NCBI GenBank assembly: GCA_045586565.1
Contig: JAZNAO010000006.1
Coordinates: 1,457-65,456 of the forward strand
From: Candidatus Enterousia sp.
GTDB lineage: Bacteria; Pseudomonadota; Alphaproteobacteria; Rs-D84
Length of the DNA stretch: 64,000 nucleotides
Direction of reading: 5' to 3'
In this document: in pieces, positions 19,118 to 56,376 of the stretch
Position numbering within the stretch: position 1 is the first letter of the stretch
Layout of the letters: each line of letters opens with the position of its first letter
Translations under genes and position numbers: made by a program
Notes under the pieces: model-generated
Told to the model about the DNA's origin: nothing
What the model saw: the letters and a program-made list of their open reading frames with translations, nothing else
The model's database searches: none

Positions 19118-22100
19118 ATGTCATTTCTCAAAAATACAGTAAGTTTATTGGCGGTTTTCTGCGTTGTTCCGGCGGCTTTTGGTGCCACGGCGCGCCCCAG
19201 TGTTTTAAACACTGCGACGGCGGTTTCGGCAACTGGTGCGGTTCGTCGTGTGGCGATGCCAACGATGACATCGTATATCACTGGCTCGGCGGGTGGTGTT
19301 ACAAACAACAATAATGGCAACTCTGGTTCCAGCAACTTATTAGACAGCATTGAATGCATCGATGCATACACCGAATGTATCAAATCCGAAGATGTGTGCG
19401 GCGAAGATTTGTCAGAATGCACAACAAACGTATTGTTCCATGGCAAAATGCCCCAGTGTGTAAGCACCCTGGCCCAATGTGAACCGGATGGGGTTGATGC
19501 ATTATTTGGCACAAAGAATGTAACCGATTTGTCGTTCTATGATTCAAATAATTCTGCGGAATATGATGCCGAAGATGGTGAGGTTATTCGTTACACATAC
19601 CCAACAGACGGCAGTGTTCTGGGGCAAATGATTATATCTGCGGCGATTGAAAATCAGTATGATACACAAACATGCGTGAAACGTTATATGTCATGCTTGA
19701 ATAAAGACAGTGTTTGTGGTGCAGACTTTGAATTATGTACCGACGAACGTGAATTTAAAAAGCAGGCATTGTTCTGTGATTCAACCCTGGCCCGTTGCCA
19801 GGCAGACGGTGTTCGCGAATTATTCGGGGTTTCAAAATGGTCGCCACATAAAATGGGTGCGGATGGCAAAATCGAAGGTTCTTCCCGTGTTGGTGTGGCA
19901 ATCAAAGACGGTGCAGATTTGGCGGCGTTGAACGCGGTTTCTACCTGTTACAAGGTTGTTGAACAGTGTTTCTTGGGCGCATGTTCGGCCAATCCGTTGC
20001 GTTGTTTGGCGGGGTCGAATTTATCGACATTGACGGCGGCAAATGATATTGCGGCGGACGGTATCACAATCACATTGTCAAATGACAGTGCGCCATCAAC
20101 CCCAACAGACGTAAATCGTTATCTGCGCACATCGTGCCAGGATACAATTGGTGCAAATAAATTCTGTCACATGACATTCTTGGGCAAAAATCCAAGTAAG
20201 AAAGACTTGGCGGATGTAGATGTCCAATCAGAAGTCTTTGACGATGCAATCAGCGAACGTAAAAAATACGTTGAATCAAAAATCCAAGATTTGATGACAC
20301 AGTTCGATAAACGTGCCAAGGATAAATGTGTTGAAACAATTCGTTCATGCGCAATGCGTTCCTGTGGCGAAGGTGTCGGTTCTGTATGTTATTCATCTGT
20401 ATATGGCGCGAATGGCGGAAATACAATTGCGGGTCCGGCCACACGTCCAGATATCAAAACGGCATGTGAATCTGTTGTAAATACCGATGTGAATTGCCAA
20501 TATGCATATTCAACTGTTATAGATAATGGTGTGTATTCATACAATTACATCCAAAATTCTGTATTTGATACATTATTCCCAGAATATGCTGCCGACAAAA
20601 CAAACAATGATCCAATCGGTGTAATCGGGTCGTTAAATTCGTCCCTGTCGACCAGTTATAATGCCGCTGCTCTGGCGCAAATGAAGAAGCAATGTCAATC
20701 TGTCGCGACCAGCTGTGTTAAATCAATGTGTGGCACGGATTACCAGAATTGCTATCGCAATCGAACAGATATCTTGTCTGATTTGACCAATACGGATAAT
20801 GCAAAGTTTGATACGTCAATGAACAAGGTTGGTGGTGTTCTGGATTATACAATTGTATTGGGATTGTGCATGAACACGGTTAAAAACGCCGATGTATGTG
20901 ATGAACACCTGAAAATCCAAAAGGCCAAATTAGATTTGGAAAAGACAACGGAAAATGTATGGGGAACACAATCGTCTGTCCGTGATGGCTGGATTGATGC
21001 TGGTGGTGCCAAGAAGTTTGAAGAAGGGATGGTTCATTCCAAAGACGAAAATGGTGCCGATTTATGCACAAATGCTGCAGGGGACCAAGGTGTTTGCTAT
21101 GACGTTGATGCCAATGGTGATGTTTTTAATAAACCTGTGATGATATCTGCAGACCTGTATAAAACGAACCAGGCCACAACATCATTATTCCGTGAATTGT
21201 TGGTTGATTTAGAATACGAAGCCCAGGCGAAGTATAACGCCAAATTGACGAAACAACAGAATATGTGTCTGGCGGCAAATTCTGGTGGTGTTGTTGGCGC
21301 TGGCGATATGGGTTCAACATTCATGTGGGCAAAATTGAAAAGGGGCAAGGTTCCGGCCGATTATTCAATGAATGGTTTAACCAGTGACCAAATTGTCCCA
21401 AGTAATGAATTGTATGGTTCATTCTGCCGTGTGCGTGTGACACTGCAATCCACAGACCCAACCGTATCTGAATGGTTAAACAGTACCGAAGGTCAGAAAT
21501 ATGCAACGCGTTATTTTGCGGCGGGTGATGCATTTACATGCGGTTCATGGATACCTGTTGGCGATGAAGGAACATGCCATGACGATACCGCCGCGGGCAT
21601 CAGAAGATGCAAAGGTGGCTCAGGATTACGTGGCCTGGCGCAAAAGGTTGGCGAAGCCACATATACATACGACAAACAGAAATCCGACACAATTCTGCAA
21701 ACAATGTTGCCAGTGGTTGGATTGCTGGGTGGTGGTATTGGTGGTGCATATCTGGGCGCCGGCATCGAAGACGGTTCTGTATTCGGCGGTCTGACGGGTA
21801 AAAAGAGCACAAAATCAGACAGCAAGACAGCAAAGACTGCAAACGATAGATGTTCGAATGCCATCGATATGGCCAAAACAAAATTAGCGGAAGCAAATCC
21901 TAGCCTGGAAAGTGTAAGAAGTTTAGCCAAAACAGCGGCTGATGAATTAGAAGACATGGACAAGGTTGTGTACAAAAACCTGGAGTATTGGCCAGATGGT
22001 ATGACAACTACTGTTACTGAAACTATTTCTAAAGGAGAAGGGGAGCAAACTAAATATTATTGTGGCGGGACAGAAGTCAATACGAAAGTACCAGCACGGT

Positions 22101-22432
22101 GCGTTGGTGATAAGTTATTGGCCGATGCAAGAACAGAAATCACACCCATTTTGAATAGACTAGAAGGTTATTGTGAATCTGCGGTCGAAGACGAAGATGC
22201 CAATGCTAAAAAGAAAAAGGGTGCCGCCGCCGCGGGGGCTGTGACAACCGGTGTGATCAGCAGTGTTCTGACATGGGGCGTCACACGCAGCATCATTGAT
22301 GCACAACGCACCAAAGAACAACAGGCCGCAATTGATGAATTCATGGATTCATTGGGTTCAAAAATCAATTGTGTTGTCGGTGGGGATTCCATTGCGGTAT
22401 ATGGCGACACATTGGTCACCAGTATGGAATAA
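19118..22432 (+). CDS. Large Cys-rich secreted/membrane-anchored protein (1104 aa), unknown family
   Basis: RBS GGAG..AAGGGG and signal peptide ...VVPAAFG|A. Contains duplicated Cys modules, a Gly-rich hydrophobic segment (LPVVGLLGGGIGGAYLGAGI) and a second C-terminal hydrophobic segment. Followed by a strong terminator. Confidence 0.7.
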   Translation: MSFLKNTVSLLAVFCVVPAAFGATARPSVLNTATAVSATGAVRRVAMPTMTSYITGSAGGVTNNNNGNSGSSNLLDSIECIDAYTECIKSEDVCGEDLSECTTNVLFHGKMPQCVSTLAQCEPDGVDALFGTKNVTDLSFYDSNNSAEYDAEDGEVIRYTYPTDGSVLGQMIISAAIENQYDTQTCVKRYMSCLNKDSVCGADFELCTDEREFKKQALFCDSTLARCQADGVRELFGVSKWSPHKMGADGKIEGSSRVGVAIKDGADLAALNAVSTCYKVVEQCFLGACSANPLRCLAGSNLSTLTAANDIAADGITITLSNDSAPSTPTDVNRYLRTSCQDTIGANKFCHMTFLGKNPSKKDLADVDVQSEVFDDAISERKKYVESKIQDLMTQFDKRAKDKCVETIRSCAMRSCGEGVGSVCYSSVYGANGGNTIAGPATRPDIKTACESVVNTDVNCQYAYSTVIDNGVYSYNYIQNSVFDTLFPEYAADKTNNDPIGVIGSLNSSLSTSYNAAALAQMKKQCQSVATSCVKSMCGTDYQNCYRNRTDILSDLTNTDNAKFDTSMNKVGGVLDYTIVLGLCMNTVKNADVCDEHLKIQKAKLDLEKTTENVWGTQSSVRDGWIDAGGAKKFEEGMVHSKDENGADLCTNAAGDQGVCYDVDANGDVFNKPVMISADLYKTNQATTSLFRELLVDLEYEAQAKYNAKLTKQQNMCLAANSGGVVGAGDMGSTFMWAKLKRGKVPADYSMNGLTSDQIVPSNELYGSFCRVRVTLQSTDPTVSEWLNSTEGQKYATRYFAAGDAFTCGSWIPVGDEGTCHDDTAAGIRRCKGGSGLRGLAQKVGEATYTYDKQKSDTILQTMLPVVGLLGGGIGGAYLGAGIEDGSVFGGLTGKKSTKSDSKTAKTANDRCSNAIDMAKTKLAEANPSLESVRSLAKTAADELEDMDKVVYKNLEYWPDGMTTTVTETISKGEGEQTKYYCGGTEVNTKVPARCVGDKLLADARTEITPILNRLEGYCESAVEDEDANAKKKKGAAAAGAVTTGVISSVLTWGVTRSIIDAQRTKEQQAAIDEFMDSLGSKINCVVGGDSIAVYGDTLVTSME

Positions 22433-22568: not shown

Positions 22569-22652
22569 CCGCGATAAATAAAAGTTTAGTCTTGCATAAC
22601 ATTTTACAAGAATCTGTGATTCTTGTCATTGCGCGCGCAGCGTGGCAATCCA
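22569..22652 (-). repeat. Dispersed palindromic repeat arm (copy R1)
   Basis: Its reverse complement aligns almost base-for-base with 53191-53283 (CTGGATTGCCACG...ATGACAAGAATCACAGATTCTTGTAAAA...AAACTTTTATTTATCGCGG). Confidence 0.8.
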
Positions 22653-22695
22653 GTTATATGCGCGTAAAACGCGCACAATATTATGATACAATTTA

Positions 22696-33993: not shown

Positions 33994-34059
33994 TGCGCGG
34001 TAATGACAAGAATTAAAAATTCTTGTAAAATGTTATGCAGATTTAAACTTTTATTTAAG
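33994..34059 (+). repeat. Dispersed palindromic repeat arm (copy F3), inverted relative to R2
   Basis: ...GGTAATGACAAGAATTAAAAATTCTTGTAAAATGTTATGCAGATTTAAACTTTTATTTAAG. It runs directly into the -35 box of the downstream promoter. Confidence 0.7.
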
Positions 34060-34061
34060 TA

Positions 34062-34090
34062 TTGATTCAACTTTTCAAAAATGATAAAAT
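34062..34090 (+). promoter_or_regulatory. Sigma70-type promoter of Cys-rich gene A
   Basis: TTGATT, a 17-nt spacer, then TAAAAT. The same geometry and -10 box recur at 53299 and 55128. Confidence 0.6.
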
Positions 34091-34358
34091 ACATTTGTCG
34101 GTGGGATTTTTCACCGATGGGGTGTGGAAACCCGTTATCTAAGCGTCTATGCACGATTGCATAACGCGCCAATGGCGTGTTTTTTGTGCAGTGTATGGAT
34201 GAAAATTTTTTTCTCCTGATCTTATGTGGTCAGGAGGGCTGCGAATATATTGAATAAGCACACAATTCTTAGATATTGTTTCCAACCTCCTGGCCACCTA
34301 TCTTTTATGGTGGTTTTTGTTTAATTTGCGTATGCAGAACGAAAGGGAGGAAAGTAAT
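34091..34358 (+). promoter_or_regulatory. Conserved structured leader (attenuator-like), copy A
   Basis: Hairpins at 34098-34117 and 34120-34133, and hairpin plus T-run at 34164-34185. Alternative segments: S1 34213-34221, S2 34226-34238, S3 34286-34298, S4 plus T5 34309-34318. Conserved in copies B and C. Confidence 0.6.
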
Positions 34359-35102
34359 ATGCAAAAATTTTTAAAACTAACCGGCGTATCAGTTTTGGCA
34401 ATCGTTGCCGCAACGGGCGCCAATGCCGCGGGATACACCTGTGAAGAATTGATTGAATACACAGCATGTAATGATGGGTGGTATTTAAACGATGGTGATT
34501 GTATAGAAAGCACAACATGTCCATCGGGCAGTTATTTACGTCCGTTTTGTTCAGTGAGCGATTGTGGTGTGAGTTATGATTCTGAGACCGAAGAATATAC
34601 TTGTTGTGATGGTGATTATGTTGCAAACCTGGAATGCATACAATGCCCATCTGTTGGTCTGACTGACAAAGACGGCAAAGTGGTGTCGGTTAAATCACAG
34701 CCTGGCTCAATGGGTGTTGGTTCGTGCTATATTGACCCGAATGCATATTTCAAGGATAGCACGGGGACATATCATTATAAGTCCAATTGTTCTGTGCGTT
34801 TCTGGGAAACATCCCCAGACACAGAAGAAGAATGTACCAGTCTTGGTTTTGAATGGGTATATACAAGTGGTGAATCAGATTCTTATTATGTTTGTGCGTT
34901 GAACATGCGGATTAGTGAACAGTTGGGTTTAATAAAGACAGAAGAAGAATGTAACGCGGCAGCTGAAAAAATATATGGCTTGGTATGGAAAGATGAAGGA
35001 GATTATTATTATTCCAGATGCGAAACCATAAACTACGAAGAGAGTTACTTTATTTTTAGGGATGAATGGTATGTTTTTGGTGATCCTATTTCTCACTCCT
35101 AA
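34359..35102 (+). CDS. Secreted Cys-rich protein, family member A (247 aa)
   Basis: RBS GGGAGGAAAG and signal peptide ...ATGANA|AGYTCEELIEYTAC. Shares the N-terminal module and the CP..GLTDKDG...SC.ID...F.D..G.Y.YK..C module with the protein at 55429. Confidence 0.75.
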   Translation: MQKFLKLTGVSVLAIVAATGANAAGYTCEELIEYTACNDGWYLNDGDCIESTTCPSGSYLRPFCSVSDCGVSYDSETEEYTCCDGDYVANLECIQCPSVGLTDKDGKVVSVKSQPGSMGVGSCYIDPNAYFKDSTGTYHYKSNCSVRFWETSPDTEEECTSLGFEWVYTSGESDSYYVCALNMRISEQLGLIKTEEECNAAAEKIYGLVWKDEGDYYYSRCETINYEESYFIFRDEWYVFGDPISHS

Positions 35103-53137: not shown

Positions 53138-53162
53138 AATCCCCGCCACCCGGCGGTTTTTT
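53137..53162 (+). terminator. Intrinsic terminator after thioesterase gene
   Basis: CCGCC-ACCC-GGCGG hairpin followed by T6. Confidence 0.7.
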
Positions 53163-53190
53163 CAGCGACAAATAATAATGATACTATGGA

Positions 53191-53283
53191 CTGGATTGCC
53201 ACGTTCGTTTCACTCCCTCGCGATGACAAGAATCACAGATTCTTGTAAAAATAGTTGTATAACTAAACTTTTATTTATCGCGG
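53191..53283 (+). repeat. Dispersed palindromic repeat arm (copy F1, solo)
   Basis: CTGGATTGCCACGTTCGTTTCACTCCCTCGCGATGACAAGAATCACAGATTCTTGTAAAA...AAACTTTTATTTATCGCGG. Near-identical in reverse complement at 22569-22652. Confidence 0.8.
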
Positions 53284-53298
53284 TATTCTATTTACCTG

Positions 53299-53327
53299 TT
53301 GACCTAAAATTTTAATATTGATAAAAT
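53299..53327 (+). promoter_or_regulatory. Sigma70-type promoter of Cys-rich gene B
   Basis: TTGACC, a 17-nt spacer, then TAAAAT. Confidence 0.6.
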
Positions 53328-53567
53328 CCTTTTGTCGGTGAGATTTTTCACCGATGGGGTGTAACGACCCGTGCGATAGCGTCTGTGCGATATTTGCGCC
53401 CAGATGAAATTACTCCTGATCTATTCGTGGTCAGGAGGGCTTGTGAATAATGCGTCCGCGCAAAATCAACAGCACAATTCTATCGATTGTCGTTAACCTC
53501 CTGACCACCTGACTTATAAAACGGTGGTTTTTATTTGATAAAACGCAAAGGAAAGGGAGAGTTTTAT
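53328..53567 (+). promoter_or_regulatory. Conserved structured leader, copy B (lacks the internal terminator-like hairpin)
   Basis: H1 and H2 are conserved. Segments: S1 53413-53421, S2 53427-53439, S3 53497-53509, S4 plus T5 53523-53532. Confidence 0.55.
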
Positions 53568-55040
53568 ATGAAAAAGTTTTTTGGTTACACTGTATCAATA
53601 ATGGCAATTTTTGTGGCAAATAATGCATCCGCGGCAGACGGATATACATGTGAAACCAGTCGTGTGTTTACATCGTGTGGTGCAGGTTGGTATTTACAGG
53701 AATCTGTTGCGGGCTCTGGCGAAGGTACGTGTTATGAATGTCCAACCAACTTTAAGAGTGGGGCTGCTGGGATTGTTGGCAAAGATAACTGTGTGGGAAA
53801 TATTGCCGCGGGATATTATTATGACAAGGAAAATGAGACGCGAAAAACATGTCCACAAGGTGCGTCGTATTTTTGCCCAGGGGTATCGAATATTACATAT
53901 GGTAATGCCAGTCGTTCGACAACAACAACCCCGTGTTATGACCCGTCTAATCCAAATGCGATGACGGCAGGATTAAAGAATGTAATTGGTTATAGTAATA
54001 TAACGCGCCTAGAATTGGGTTCATATGGTATTCCAGAAGGTGTTCAGGTAATTACATGGAAACCTGTTGTGGTAAATAGTGGCGGGGCCAGTTCGTATGA
54101 ACATTGTGCCTTTGATTGGACTCAATCAACAAATAATTATAAAATACAGATAATCCCACAAAACAGCCTTACAGGGTCTGGGGTGGCCACTTTAAACATA
54201 ACATCATGCAGCAGTGGACAATTATCGTCGGTTCGAAATGTTAAATTTAATGAGATTGATATTACAACTGGTGGCAGTCCCTTGTTCTCAACAGGATGTG
54301 CCGGCTGTGGCGAAGGTAAGTATTTAAAGTCTGGTGCAACGGAGTGCAGTGCTTGTAACATTCATGATGCGTTGGGCTTGGATACCAGTGTGACAGCAAT
54401 ATGGCAATCTGGTCTGGCTGAAAGCACTGTGGGCTCTTGGGTTTGTCCGTATCGCTTTGAAACGCTTCCTGTTGAAAATGGTGTTGCCACGGGTATATCG
54501 TGCTCGATGACCGATGTCGCCAATGGTACATACAGTTGTCGCTTGTCCCTGGATATAGGACAACTAGGGTGCGATGCGGGTTATATATTGCAAAATGCGG
54601 ACATGACATCCGAAACATTGATTAACTGTGGTGGCCAGGATAATTCGTATGGACAGTCTGTAAATGCTGATACTGATCTTGCAATTGGGCTAGAAATTTT
54701 GACACCGTCAAACTTAAAATGCGTGCCGACACGTATGGGGTGCTATCAGCCAAACGGTCAGGATGAATTTGCAGAAATTACAAACGCTGCGGACTTGATT
54801 ACAGCATTGACTGGCAAGCCTTGTGGCGATGGTAATTATTGTGACAAATCTGCATCTGCGGAACAGACTGCGTGTCCTGCGGTTAAATTGTTCATGCGCG
54901 AAGATGGCAGTGCGGTCAACATGATGTCGGCCGATTATGCAGACGATGCGGCAGACTGTTATGTTCCAGCCAACCCAGATATCTTGTACAAGGACGGAAA
55001 TGGAAACCTGTTCTATCTGGAAAGCAAGTGTGGCTACTAA
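53568..55040 (+). CDS. Secreted Cys-rich protein, family member B (490 aa)
   Basis: RBS AAAGGGAGAG and signal peptide ...NNASA|ADGYTCE. Repeated C-x2-C-P / G-x-Y patterns, and a C-terminal module shared with A and C. Confidence 0.75.
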   Translation: MKKFFGYTVSIMAIFVANNASAADGYTCETSRVFTSCGAGWYLQESVAGSGEGTCYECPTNFKSGAAGIVGKDNCVGNIAAGYYYDKENETRKTCPQGASYFCPGVSNITYGNASRSTTTTPCYDPSNPNAMTAGLKNVIGYSNITRLELGSYGIPEGVQVITWKPVVVNSGGASSYEHCAFDWTQSTNNYKIQIIPQNSLTGSGVATLNITSCSSGQLSSVRNVKFNEIDITTGGSPLFSTGCAGCGEGKYLKSGATECSACNIHDALGLDTSVTAIWQSGLAESTVGSWVCPYRFETLPVENGVATGISCSMTDVANGTYSCRLSLDIGQLGCDAGYILQNADMTSETLINCGGQDNSYGQSVNADTDLAIGLEILTPSNLKCVPTRMGCYQPNGQDEFAEITNAADLITALTGKPCGDGNYCDKSASAEQTACPAVKLFMREDGSAVNMMSADYADDAADCYVPANPDILYKDGNGNLFYLESKCGY

Positions 55041-55067
55041 AAAATCCCCCTTTTGGGGGATTTTTTT
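55040..55067 (+). terminator. Intrinsic terminator after Cys-rich gene B
   Basis: ATCCCCC-TTTT-GGGGGAT hairpin followed by T7. Confidence 0.8.
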
Positions 55068-55127
55068 GAGATACGAGATATGAGACATGTGACAGGAATA
55101 TTTATCAATGTGTCCTTATTTTATTTA

Positions 55128-55156
55128 TTGACGTAAATTCTTAAAACTGATAAAAT
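55128..55156 (+). promoter_or_regulatory. Sigma70-type promoter of Cys-rich gene C
   Basis: TTGACG, a 17-nt spacer, then TAAAAT. Confidence 0.6.
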
Positions 55157-55428
55157 TCTTTTGTCGATGGGATTTTTCATCGATGGGGTGTCAAGACCCG
55201 TTTCATTGGCGTTCATGCACGATTGCATAACACGCCATGTGGCGTATTTTTTATGCGATATGTGTATGGGTGATAAATTACTCCTGACCCGTGGTCAGGA
55301 GGGCTGTGAATATATTGAATAAGCACACAATTCCAATGATTGTCTTGAACCTCCTGGCCACCTTTTGTGAAAAACGGTGGTTTTTTGTTTATTTTGGCAA
55401 ACAAAACAAAGGAAAAGGAGAGTTTGTT
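55157..55428 (+). promoter_or_regulatory. Conserved structured leader, copy C
   Basis: H1 carries a compensatory change (TCGATG/CATCGA). Hairpin plus T-run at 55232-55252. Segments: S1 55281-55289, S2 55291-55303, S3 55350-55362, S4 plus T6 55376-55386. Confidence 0.6.
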
Positions 55429-56376
55429 ATGAAAAAAATTTTATTGAGCGGTGCGTCAATCCTGGCAATTATCGCCACCACAAACGCAAATGCCGCCGGA
55501 TATACCTGTGAAGAATTGATTGAATATACATCGTGTAATACGGGATATTATCTAAATGATGGTGATTGTATCCCGGGCAATACATGCCCTGCCGGGAATT
55601 ATTTACAAGGTGTATGTCCAGATGGGTATGAGTATTCTGACACTTGGAGCGTTGAGAATGGTGCAATTGTTTGGGTTAACAATATTACACAAGCAGAGTG
55701 TGAAAATGAAGGAGACTACTGCACTTGGTACGGCGCAGGGTGCCTTATTACAGATGCGGATCCATTTATGGTGGACGATGGATTTATTTCGGCGACAGGA
55801 TATGAATGCACTGCGTGCGCGGCTGGTTCATATCAACCATCTGCGGGTCAATATGAATGTATAACATGTCCGGCGGGGGCATATTGCGGAACGACCGGAT
55901 TGTCCGCTGTATCTGGCCAGTGTGCCAAGGGGACTTATTCGCATGGTGGTGCTGTATCATGTGCCGCATGTCCGGCGACGGGACTGACCGATAAAGATGG
56001 TGCGGTTGTTGTTGCAACAACGCCGACGGCTGGTGCAACGACGATCTCGTCGTGTGTAATTGATGATACGGTTTATTTCAGGGATACCAAAGGTGTATAT
56101 CGTTACAAACAGGATTGTGTATTGCTTGGTGATATAACAGGCACTAACGCTGCAGAGTGTGAATGGGTGGCAGAAATAACCGGTGAAGATTGGAATATGT
56201 TTAATGATGCTTGTAGTTTTAATACCGAAGGAACAACGATTTTGGCACCAGCGACAGAATCTGAATGCCTTGATTTAGGTGGTGATTGGGACACTTATTT
56301 TGAAGAAGGAAAATGCCATTGTGATGGTTGGGTGTGGTATATTAAAGAAGGAAAATTGATGTGTGGGACAGTATAA
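55429..56376 (+). CDS. Secreted Cys-rich protein, family member C (315 aa)
   Basis: RBS AAAGGAGAG and signal peptide ...TTNANA|AGYTCEELIEYTSC. Contains the ephrin-receptor-like/GCC2-GCC3-like stretch CTACAAGSYQPSAGQYECITCPAGAYC...CAKGTY...CAACP. Confidence 0.78.
   Translation: MKKILLSGASILAIIATTNANAAGYTCEELIEYTSCNTGYYLNDGDCIPGNTCPAGNYLQGVCPDGYEYSDTWSVENGAIVWVNNITQAECENEGDYCTWYGAGCLITDADPFMVDDGFISATGYECTACAAGSYQPSAGQYECITCPAGAYCGTTGLSAVSGQCAKGTYSHGGAVSCAACPATGLTDKDGAVVVATTPTAGATTISSCVIDDTVYFRDTKGVYRYKQDCVLLGDITGTNAAECEWVAEITGEDWNMFNDACSFNTEGTTILAPATESECLDLGGDWDTYFEEGKCHCDGWVWYIKEGKLMCGTV

Follow-up and report, generated by a model that had tools for sequence, protein, structure and literature searches.

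Leader B, at positions 53334-53567 of the 64-kb stretch of DNA analysed in this study (the window), belongs to a large and strongly covarying family of leader RNAs that resembles a riboswitch-type attenuator, and B is a conserved variant of it with a single terminator. We consider it reasonably probable that B is a functional member of this multi-copy family of riboswitch-like transcription-attenuation leaders. Termination at the two terminator-like elements of the family, T1 and T2, and switching between an ON and an OFF state are what we infer from the folding models. The observation on B in the original prediction was partly confirmed, and its interpretation is partly supported.

Leader B and its relatives

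Three homologous leaders, A, B and C, are found in the window, and an HMM built from relatives matches only these three there (nhmmer): A at 34080-34324 (E 1e-47), B at 53318-53550 (E 2.5e-35) and C at 55146-55392 (E 1.6e-44). Upstream of each lies a TTGAC-17-TAAAAT promoter with an extended -10, the leader starting about 7 nt downstream; the -10 region is alignable across the family, and the transcript of leader B probably starts near 53334. All three downstream genes encode Cys-rich proteins with signal peptides. The parts of B are listed below.

53299-53327 (+): promoter of leader B; TTGACC and TAAAAT 17 nt apart, the -10 being preceded by TG
53334-53355 (+): H1, 5'-terminal hairpin, GTCGGTGAG / TTCACCGAT; covariation at 7 of 8 pairs over 125 leaders, 96.9% of cells paired
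53356-53370 (+): H2 region; GGGGT (53356-53360) has as partner the local CCC (53368-53370) or the long-range ACCTC of S3 (P1c)
53362-53368 (+): Y, TAACGAC, in the H2 loop; pairs with Y'
53374-53379 (+): X, CGATAG, 5' strand of X:X'; partner CTATCG at 53480-53485
53380-53406 (+): stem P2 of B; base CGTCTG (53380-53385) with CAGATG (53401-53406), base pairs covarying
53386-53400 (+): P2 apex of B, 15 nt, TGCGATATTTGCGCC; stands for the ~45-nt T1-bearing apex of A and C
53407-53412 (+): A-rich segment joining P2 to S1; alignment consensus GAAAAAcAAA
53413-53421 (+): S1, CTCCTGATC, putative anti-antiterminator pairing with S2; S1:S2 paired in 99-100% and in the minimum free energy fold (MFE) of 98% of leaders
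53427-53438 (+): S2, GTGGTCAGGAGG; alternative partners S1 or S3
53440-53473 (+): P4 hairpin, CTTGTG ... CAGC; stem covaries, conserved loop motif split by the B-lineage insertion
53451-53462 (+): mini-hairpin TGCG-TCCG-CGCA in the P4 loop of B; columns 228-236 of alignment A2 are filled only by B
53474-53490 (+): P5, local hairpin ACAAT/ATTGT, with X' (CTATCG, 53480-53485) in its loop; 99.7% paired
53489-53495 (+): Y', GTCGTTA; pairs with Y in a 7-bp helix
53496-53509 (+): S3, ACCTCCTGACCACC; 53496-53500 pairs with GGGGT (P1c), 53497-53508 with S2 (putative antiterminator), and 53503-53509 is the 5' arm of T2
53523-53533 (+): S4 (GGTGGT) and T-run, 3' arm and tail of T2; MFE folds include T2 in 97% of 125 leaders
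53553-55040 (+): Shine-Dalgarno (53553-61) and controlled gene, ATG at 53568; 490-aa protein with signal peptide, 5.3% Cys

Leaders A and C have the full architecture.

34062-34090 (+): promoter of leader A, layout as in B
34097-34319 (+): leader A; terminator-like T1 at 34163-34185 (34163-34181 as flagged by a simple scan), gene ATG at 34359
55128-55156 (+): promoter of leader C, layout as in B
55163-55386 (+): leader C; terminator-like T1 at 55232-55252 (55232-55245 as flagged by a simple scan), gene ATG at 55429

Comparison of the three copies bears directly on the original prediction, which described B as a natural deletion variant retaining H1, H2 and S1-S4. All of these elements were located in B, between 53334 and 53533. 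The ATGCA-CGAT-TGCAT element and the GC hairpin with T6 were said to be lacking from B, and indeed the terminator-like flag is raised in A and C with nothing equivalent in B, from which about 40 nt of A and C are missing in the three-way alignment. The segment 53371-53405 had been called unrelated sequence; in fact it holds strand X (53374-53379) and the base of P2, and only the 15-nt apex at 53386-53400 differs. Likewise, the insertion between S2 and S3, put at about 20 nt, amounts to 10-11 nt within the P4 loop, the spacer being 57 nt in B, 47 in A and 46 in C. Full complementarity of S3 to S2 in B was found as claimed: S2 GTGGTCAGGAGG and S3 CCTCCTGACCAC form 12 perfect bp, and the seventh of these pairs is a G.U in A and C. 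Among the 125 full-length relatives this pair is U-A in 100, U-G in 22 and G-C in 3, so the A-U state is that of the family majority, and it is A and C that carry the variant, not B.

Repeated elements were also observed around the leaders. A repeat of about 65 nt lies at 34003-34070 (+), 53223-53290 (+) and 22570-22633 (-); it contains the inverted repeat CAAGAAT-N5-ATTCTTG, which sits within a promoter-like ATGACA-17/18-TAAAAT. The first two copies are about 60 nt upstream of the A and B promoters, and the third, reversed copy has no adjoining leader. This repeat is missing from all 111 related loci examined, and could be a genome-specific operator or second promoter. Palindromic REP/MITE-like elements, GTCATTGCGAG...GCGTGGCAATCCAG, recur beside leader promoters in several genomes; they take the form CTGGATTGCCACG...CGCGATGACAAG in the window (53190-53232 and 22625-22655) and are also found upstream of CCAACC-type leaders in L111, L057, L100 and L041.

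The family was surveyed in two steps. A pattern scan for S1-S2-S3, over one genome per species, returned at least 111 stretches, and nhmmer over 902 kb of loci plus the window gave at least 144 copies, 125 of them full length. The sample is biased by the fixed S1-S3 scan pattern, which allowed no more than 55 nt between S2 and S3 and missed B itself; leaders with B-like insertions are under-sampled. At least 38 assemblies are represented among the 80 loci listed, and nearly all listed stretches are from MAGs of gut origin that bear the label Candidatus Enterousia, uncultured Rickettsiales or Alphaproteobacteria. Candidatus Enterousia and related members of the order Rs-D84, to which these organisms belong, are uncultured gut bacteria with genomes below 1 Mb (PMC12306168), and one locus carries an alpha-type tmRNA, which fits Rs-D84 placement. 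Extrapolating from three leaders of about 200 nt per 64 kb, we estimate dozens of copies in a genome of less than 1 Mb.

At the gathering threshold, Rfam 15 gave only tRNA and tmRNA matches in the window and 15 loci (about 25 leader copies), and at E <= 10 no family overlapped a leader over 53150-55500. Furthermore, no description of the leader RNA was found in the literature on Enterousia, on Rs-D84/RF32 riboswitches or on the S2/S3 sequences. The family is apparently undescribed.

Several atypical copies deserve mention. L051 3489-3701 and L031 426-640 have X and X' strands that are not complementary, each half matching another paralogue; these leaders appear to have arisen by recombination between copies or through chimeric assembly of a multi-copy repeat. 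In the degenerate copy L028 475-528, which precedes a signal-peptide gene, the S3:S4 terminator comes immediately after H1 and H2, and S1, S2, P4 and P5 are missing. Leader-bearing contigs L029, L031, L045 and L046 (CAVGNU01) and L054 (CAZJGX01) are labelled Bacteroides fragilis and Muribaculaceae; both CAVGNU01 and CAZJGX01 contigs are probably mis-binned or mislabelled Rs-D84.

Architecture and covariation of the family

The leaders share a common architecture, composed of H1, a long-range closing helix P1, a junction of the P2 base, S1:S2 and P4, and the terminator formed by S3:S4 and its T-run. P1 is made of three parts: GGGGU:ACCUC (P1c), Y:Y' (7 bp) and X:X' (6 bp). RNAalifold on 125 leaders recovers the same helices as the pair counts, and single-sequence MFE folding places P1, S1:S2 and T2 in 97-98% of these leaders, including A, B and C.

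Covariation strongly supports these helices. Over the 125 leaders, 95.8% of the cells are paired, versus 83.4% in shuffles and 39-50% with slid partners; 814 cells are changed on both sides versus 220 in shuffled alignments (0/500), and such double-sided changes occur in 31 of the 49 pairs. At each X:X' pair both sides are changed in 44-72 of the 125 sequences, and at four variable pairs of Y:Y' in 24-70. P1c is 98.9% paired and present in the MFE of A, B and C, and the TCCCGACC subfamily re-makes it as CGGGA:UCCCG. The local helices covary as well. H2 (GGG:CCC) has a covarying G/A:C/U pair, the local pair 30:43 being GC in 78 leaders, GU in 28 and AU in 18, and P5 covaries to ACTAT/ATAGT and CTAC/GTAG in divergent CCAACC-type copies. 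Both H2 and P5 overlap P1, with Y displayed in the H2 loop and X' in the P5 loop.

The original prediction took S1-S4 as the conserved core. These strands are indeed present in every family member and change in concert over three subfamilies, but the core is much larger, since it also includes P1 (X:X', Y:Y' and GGGGU:ACCUC), P4, P5 and H1.

The proposed S1-S4 switch, the predicted first terminator and the B lineage

S2 is complementary to both S1 and the core of S3, which are near-identical. All 125 leaders pair the 10-bp S2:S3 core, and pairing reaches at least 98% in each of S1:S2, S2:S3 and S3:S4. Because the main subfamily is almost invariant in S1-S4, the evidence for these pairings comes from few divergent subfamilies, whose S1/S2/S3/S4 strands are given here.

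Subfamily 1: CTCCTGA / GGTCAGGAGG / CCTCCTGACCACC / GGTGG
Subfamily 2 (CCAACC type): TCCAACC / GGTTGGAG or GGTTGGGGGG / CTCCAACCACC, C(T/C)CCAACCACC or ..CCGCC / GGTGG or GGCGG
Subfamily 3: TCCCGACC / GGTCGGGAAG / CTTCCCGACCGTC / GACGG

The 5' GGGG also has two partners, the local CCC of H2 or CCUC at the 5' end of S3, and in the TCCCGACC subfamily GGGG and both partners become CGGGA/UCCCG/UCCCG. Concerted change of S1-S4 and of the GGGG partners supports the existence of two concerted states, OFF and ON.

Three mutually exclusive pairings of this kind are reminiscent of the trp-type layout, with its 1:2, 2:3 and 3:4 logic, and A, B and C each have a short ATG ORF running through S1. That translation of a leader peptide across S1 drives a ribosome-mediated attenuator is nevertheless very improbable. 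Such ORFs fall about equally into the three frames relative to S1 (56/53/47), only 8 of 125 leaders combine an ATG with an SD-like sequence, and the peptides are not conserved, the frame in B differing from that in A and C. As there is no conserved leader peptide, the trigger would not be a stalling ribosome. The idea that S2 itself is a true ribosome-binding site was also rejected: no start codon lies at a usable distance, and the GGTTGGGGGG and GGTCGGGAAG subfamilies no longer have the SD-like sequence.

The energies of the alternative states were then compared. In nested folding, a calculation that must break P1, forcing the antiterminator costs 11.1 kcal/mol in A, 8.9 in B and 11.1 in C, with a family mean of 11.8. 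When P1 is kept as a pseudoknot, the antiterminator minus terminator difference before S4 is +0.3 +/- 2.6 kcal/mol over 125 leaders (A -0.3, C -1.4, B -4.6), a crude estimate in which duplex initiation is the sole penalty charged for loops and steric effects. On this estimate, on which the near-balance depends, the two states would be nearly isoenergetic before S4, which is the balance that a switch needs.

Copy B stands at one end of the family in these calculations. Its S2:S3 duplex is the strongest of 125 (-24.5 kcal/mol), its T2 hairpin, at -7.6 kcal/mol, is among the weakest 3% (family mean -10.2), and its antiterminator-minus-terminator gap lies at the 1.6th percentile. The competition between S2:S3 and S3:S4 on which the original prediction relied holds in folding, the S3:S4 hairpin of B being weak yet inside the family range. 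With no T1, a perfect 12-bp S2:S3 and a weak T2, B is expected to have the highest basal read-through of the three copies. The proposal that B is set to a different default state stands in part: B is shifted toward read-through, but A, B and C share the terminator fold as default in nested folding, and the difference is one of degree. On these figures, read-through would be easiest in B, whose default fold is the same as that of A and C.

The upstream hairpin with its T-run had been proposed to be optional, and this was borne out. By a strict rule (GC-rich, at least 5 T in 8 nt), a T1-type hairpin is found in P2 of 102 of the 125 leaders; its median energy, -8.7 kcal/mol, is comparable to that of T2 (-10.3), and the 8 nt after it contain 6 T. 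About 12 leaders (~10%) are truly without T1, among them B, all three full-length CCAACC-type copies, L062, both L026 copies and L089. The P2 stem of B, without a terminator-like hairpin, is 27 nt long versus a family median of 54. T1 is thus widespread but dispensable, and its terminator activity is predicted. The GCGUC of the P2 base was considered as an antiterminator for the T1 5' arm; pairing is possible, without covariation with T1 arm sequences, and the candidate was rejected.

A different reading of the P2 apex is that its hairpin and T-run form a structural cap or a pause site rather than a terminator, so that the loss in B is neutral and B behaves like A and C. Some copies (L066, L111_2337 and L032_1310) do keep the GC hairpin with a G-rich tract in place of the T-run, P2 is a plain hairpin or absent altogether in CCAACC-type copies, the exact T1 hairpin is in the MFE of only 46% of nascent transcripts, and pairing of its 3' arm contributes just 3.9 kcal/mol at the median. 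However, 82% of the 125 leaders keep a GC-rich stem with at least 5 T in 8 nt immediately after it, as in T2 and in gene-end terminators, and a structural cap needs no U-run; B moreover differs also in S2:S3 and in T2 strength. We regard this reading as rather unlikely and retain T1 as a predicted terminator.

The history of B can be followed in its orthologues. An exact look-up of the B protein of the window found it not on record, and it has only two non-identical homologue clusters, P0002 (60% identity) and P0003 (57%). The contigs of these homologues (L112, L113 and L114) carry a leader of B type. In L113 (57% protein identity) P2 is short and AU-rich, without the GC hairpin, and its apex GTGCGAT.TTTG is homologous to that of B. 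The insertion ATGCGTCCGCGCA is kept in L112, L113 and L114, and in the L113 fold it forms a UGCG-UCCG-CGCA tetraloop hairpin. Between B and L113 there are eight compensated pairs, four in H1, three in Y:Y' and one in X:X', and the L113 leader folds into the full architecture with z = -4.8. A short P2 and a P4 insertion common to orthologues at 57-60% identity indicate that B is an old, maintained variant under selection. On this evidence, T1 disappeared early from the B lineage, which acquired a small P4-loop hairpin.

A decaying, non-functional copy, the remnant of a deletion, is consequently the least we would expect B to be, on a par with the leader-peptide attenuator, and is already largely refuted. 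Its nhmmer score is the lowest of the window copies (120 versus 150 and 161 bits) and its P4 loop motif is disrupted, but all helices are intact, and both lineage-specific changes are kept in the orthologues at 57-60% identity with 8 compensatory pair changes.

S3 carries the G variant in L112, L113 and L114; perfect S2:S3 pairing therefore does not characterise the B lineage and, judging from these relatives, may be incidental in B. In B, GCGCAAA (53458-53464), on the 3' side of the insertion, is complementary to TTTGCGC of the P2 apex (53393-53399), and L113 has an analogous GUGCG/CGCAC match. The two B-lineage changes may be coupled, for example through a loop-loop contact.

Proposed mechanism, controlled genes and known systems

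In the mechanism that we propose, S1 would hold S2 in the OFF state and the 5' GGGG would hold the 5' half of S3, while the 3' half of S3 and S4 would form the terminator. In the ON state, GGGG would close as H2 and S2:S3 would form over 10-13 bp, which would remove the base of the terminator and let polymerase read into the gene. Given near-isoenergetic states before S4, an effector stabilising the junction or capturing S1 would decide the outcome. T1, in the P2 of most members, could act as an extra brake or pause, and its loss would leave the B lineage with a single checkpoint.

The genes behind these leaders have a distinct character. Of 135 downstream ORFs, with a median of 190 aa and falling into 27 similarity clusters, at least 118 have signal peptides. 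Their Cys content is 7.1%, versus 0-0.6% in the housekeeping proteins of the window, and they have few Pfam matches, Ephrin_rec_like among them. CCAACC-type leaders precede small cytoplasmic XRE-family HTH (HTH_3) proteins, not secreted ones. Members of this subfamily, often without P2 or T1, include L057 5159-5290, L100 2080-2212, L041 2213-2334, L052 1698-1830 and L111 1880-1984. Elsewhere in the window, a 1104-aa ORF at 19118-22432 (+) has 3.9% Cys, well above the housekeeping proteins, without a leader copy upstream. With secreted Cys-rich proteins and XRE-type regulators as controlled genes, there is no pathway that points to a ligand.

That the controlled genes are not a metabolic pathway would also suit a switch driven by a trans-acting macromolecule, with no small ligand at the junction: an RNA-binding protein or small RNA capturing S1 and the A-rich linker, or a processive antitermination complex on H1/H2 that overrides both terminators. 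Nested folding gives OFF as the default for 97% of leaders, two serial terminators lie downstream of conserved 5' hairpins, and the degenerate L028 475-528 keeps only H1, H2 and the S3:S4 terminator before its gene. A processive mechanism, however, has no need for a three-way covarying competition among S1, S2 and S3 or for a P1-closed junction, no candidate factor was found, and there is no match to an Rfam antitermination RNA such as EAR. Compared with put and EAR, the leader has two terminators after conserved 5' hairpins, but it also conserves a terminator-specific antiterminator, S2:S3. Protein-binding antiterminators such as RAT (about 30 nt) and the two hexaloop hairpins recognised by ANTAR proteins overlap the terminator; inspection of the alignment revealed no RAT/BglG- or ANTAR-type motif overlapping T1 or T2. 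We hold a trans-acting driver to have about the same low likelihood as the cap or pause reading of T1.

The leader shares two structural properties with riboswitches, a covariation-backed multi-helix domain and an expression platform sharing strands with it: S2 lies inside the P1-closed junction, and the 5' half of S3 doubles as the 3' strand of P1c. It also has the overlapping 1:2, 2:3 and 3:4 pairings of an attenuator, 3:4 being an intrinsic terminator. Transcriptional OFF riboswitches such as SAM-I (S-box) couple a multi-helix junction aptamer to a terminator platform. Like these, the leader has a P1 and a junction of three further stems supported by covariation, with conserved loop and junction nucleotides; its antiterminator combines S2, a strand internal to the aptamer, with S3, which directly follows P1 on the 3' side, and an intrinsic terminator comes next. 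Unlike SAM-I, it matches no Rfam class, precedes secreted Cys-rich or XRE genes and not a pathway, occurs in an estimated dozens of copies per genome, has a second terminator inside an aptamer stem, and uses a 5' GGGG that competes for S3.

With the trp, his and phe attenuators the leader shares three mutually exclusive pairings and a hairpin plus U-run end, S1 and S3 being near-identical competitors for S2; unlike them, it has no conserved peptide or regulatory codons, and a large, covarying, tertiary-like domain surrounds the switch. It is T-box-like in being a long multi-stem leader with an antiterminator/terminator end, and GGUGG/CCACC in S3/S4 superficially recalls acceptor-end pairing, but it has no RF00230-type match, specifier loop or T-box sequence, its genes are not aminoacyl-tRNA related, and its antiterminator is a perfect 10-13-bp duplex without the T-box antiterminator bulge.

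The c-di-GMP-I riboswitch Bc1 of Bacillus thuringiensis has two rho-independent terminators in its expression platform (PMC11218506). The leader resembles Bc1 in having two serial intrinsic terminators as dual checkpoints, and differs in that both Bc1 terminators are downstream of the aptamer, whereas the first one of the leader lies in the sensor-domain stem P2 and is dispensable in about 10% of members. No GEMM-I match to the leader was found in Rfam.

Going beyond this, we tentatively suggest, as a possibility we would not yet call probable, that the family represents a new class of orphan riboswitch responding to a small molecule or an ion and serving as a master switch for the Cys-rich secreted or surface repertoire of reduced-genome gut Alphaproteobacteria (Rs-D84). 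In its two-terminator design, T1 in the sensor stem would release a 5' RNA of about 95 nt with gene-specific X and Y, possibly acting in trans, and B and its orthologues would be natural single-checkpoint variants.

The covariation is of a quality like that of a validated riboswitch, with no known class and no obvious ligand, which makes the family a strong orphan candidate. Natural variants such as B without T1 and the CCAACC copies without P2 are ready-made deletion mutants showing which modules are dispensable. Moreover, the leader almost always stands before secreted proteins with about 7% Cys, which implies that one shared signal acts over much of the exported proteome.
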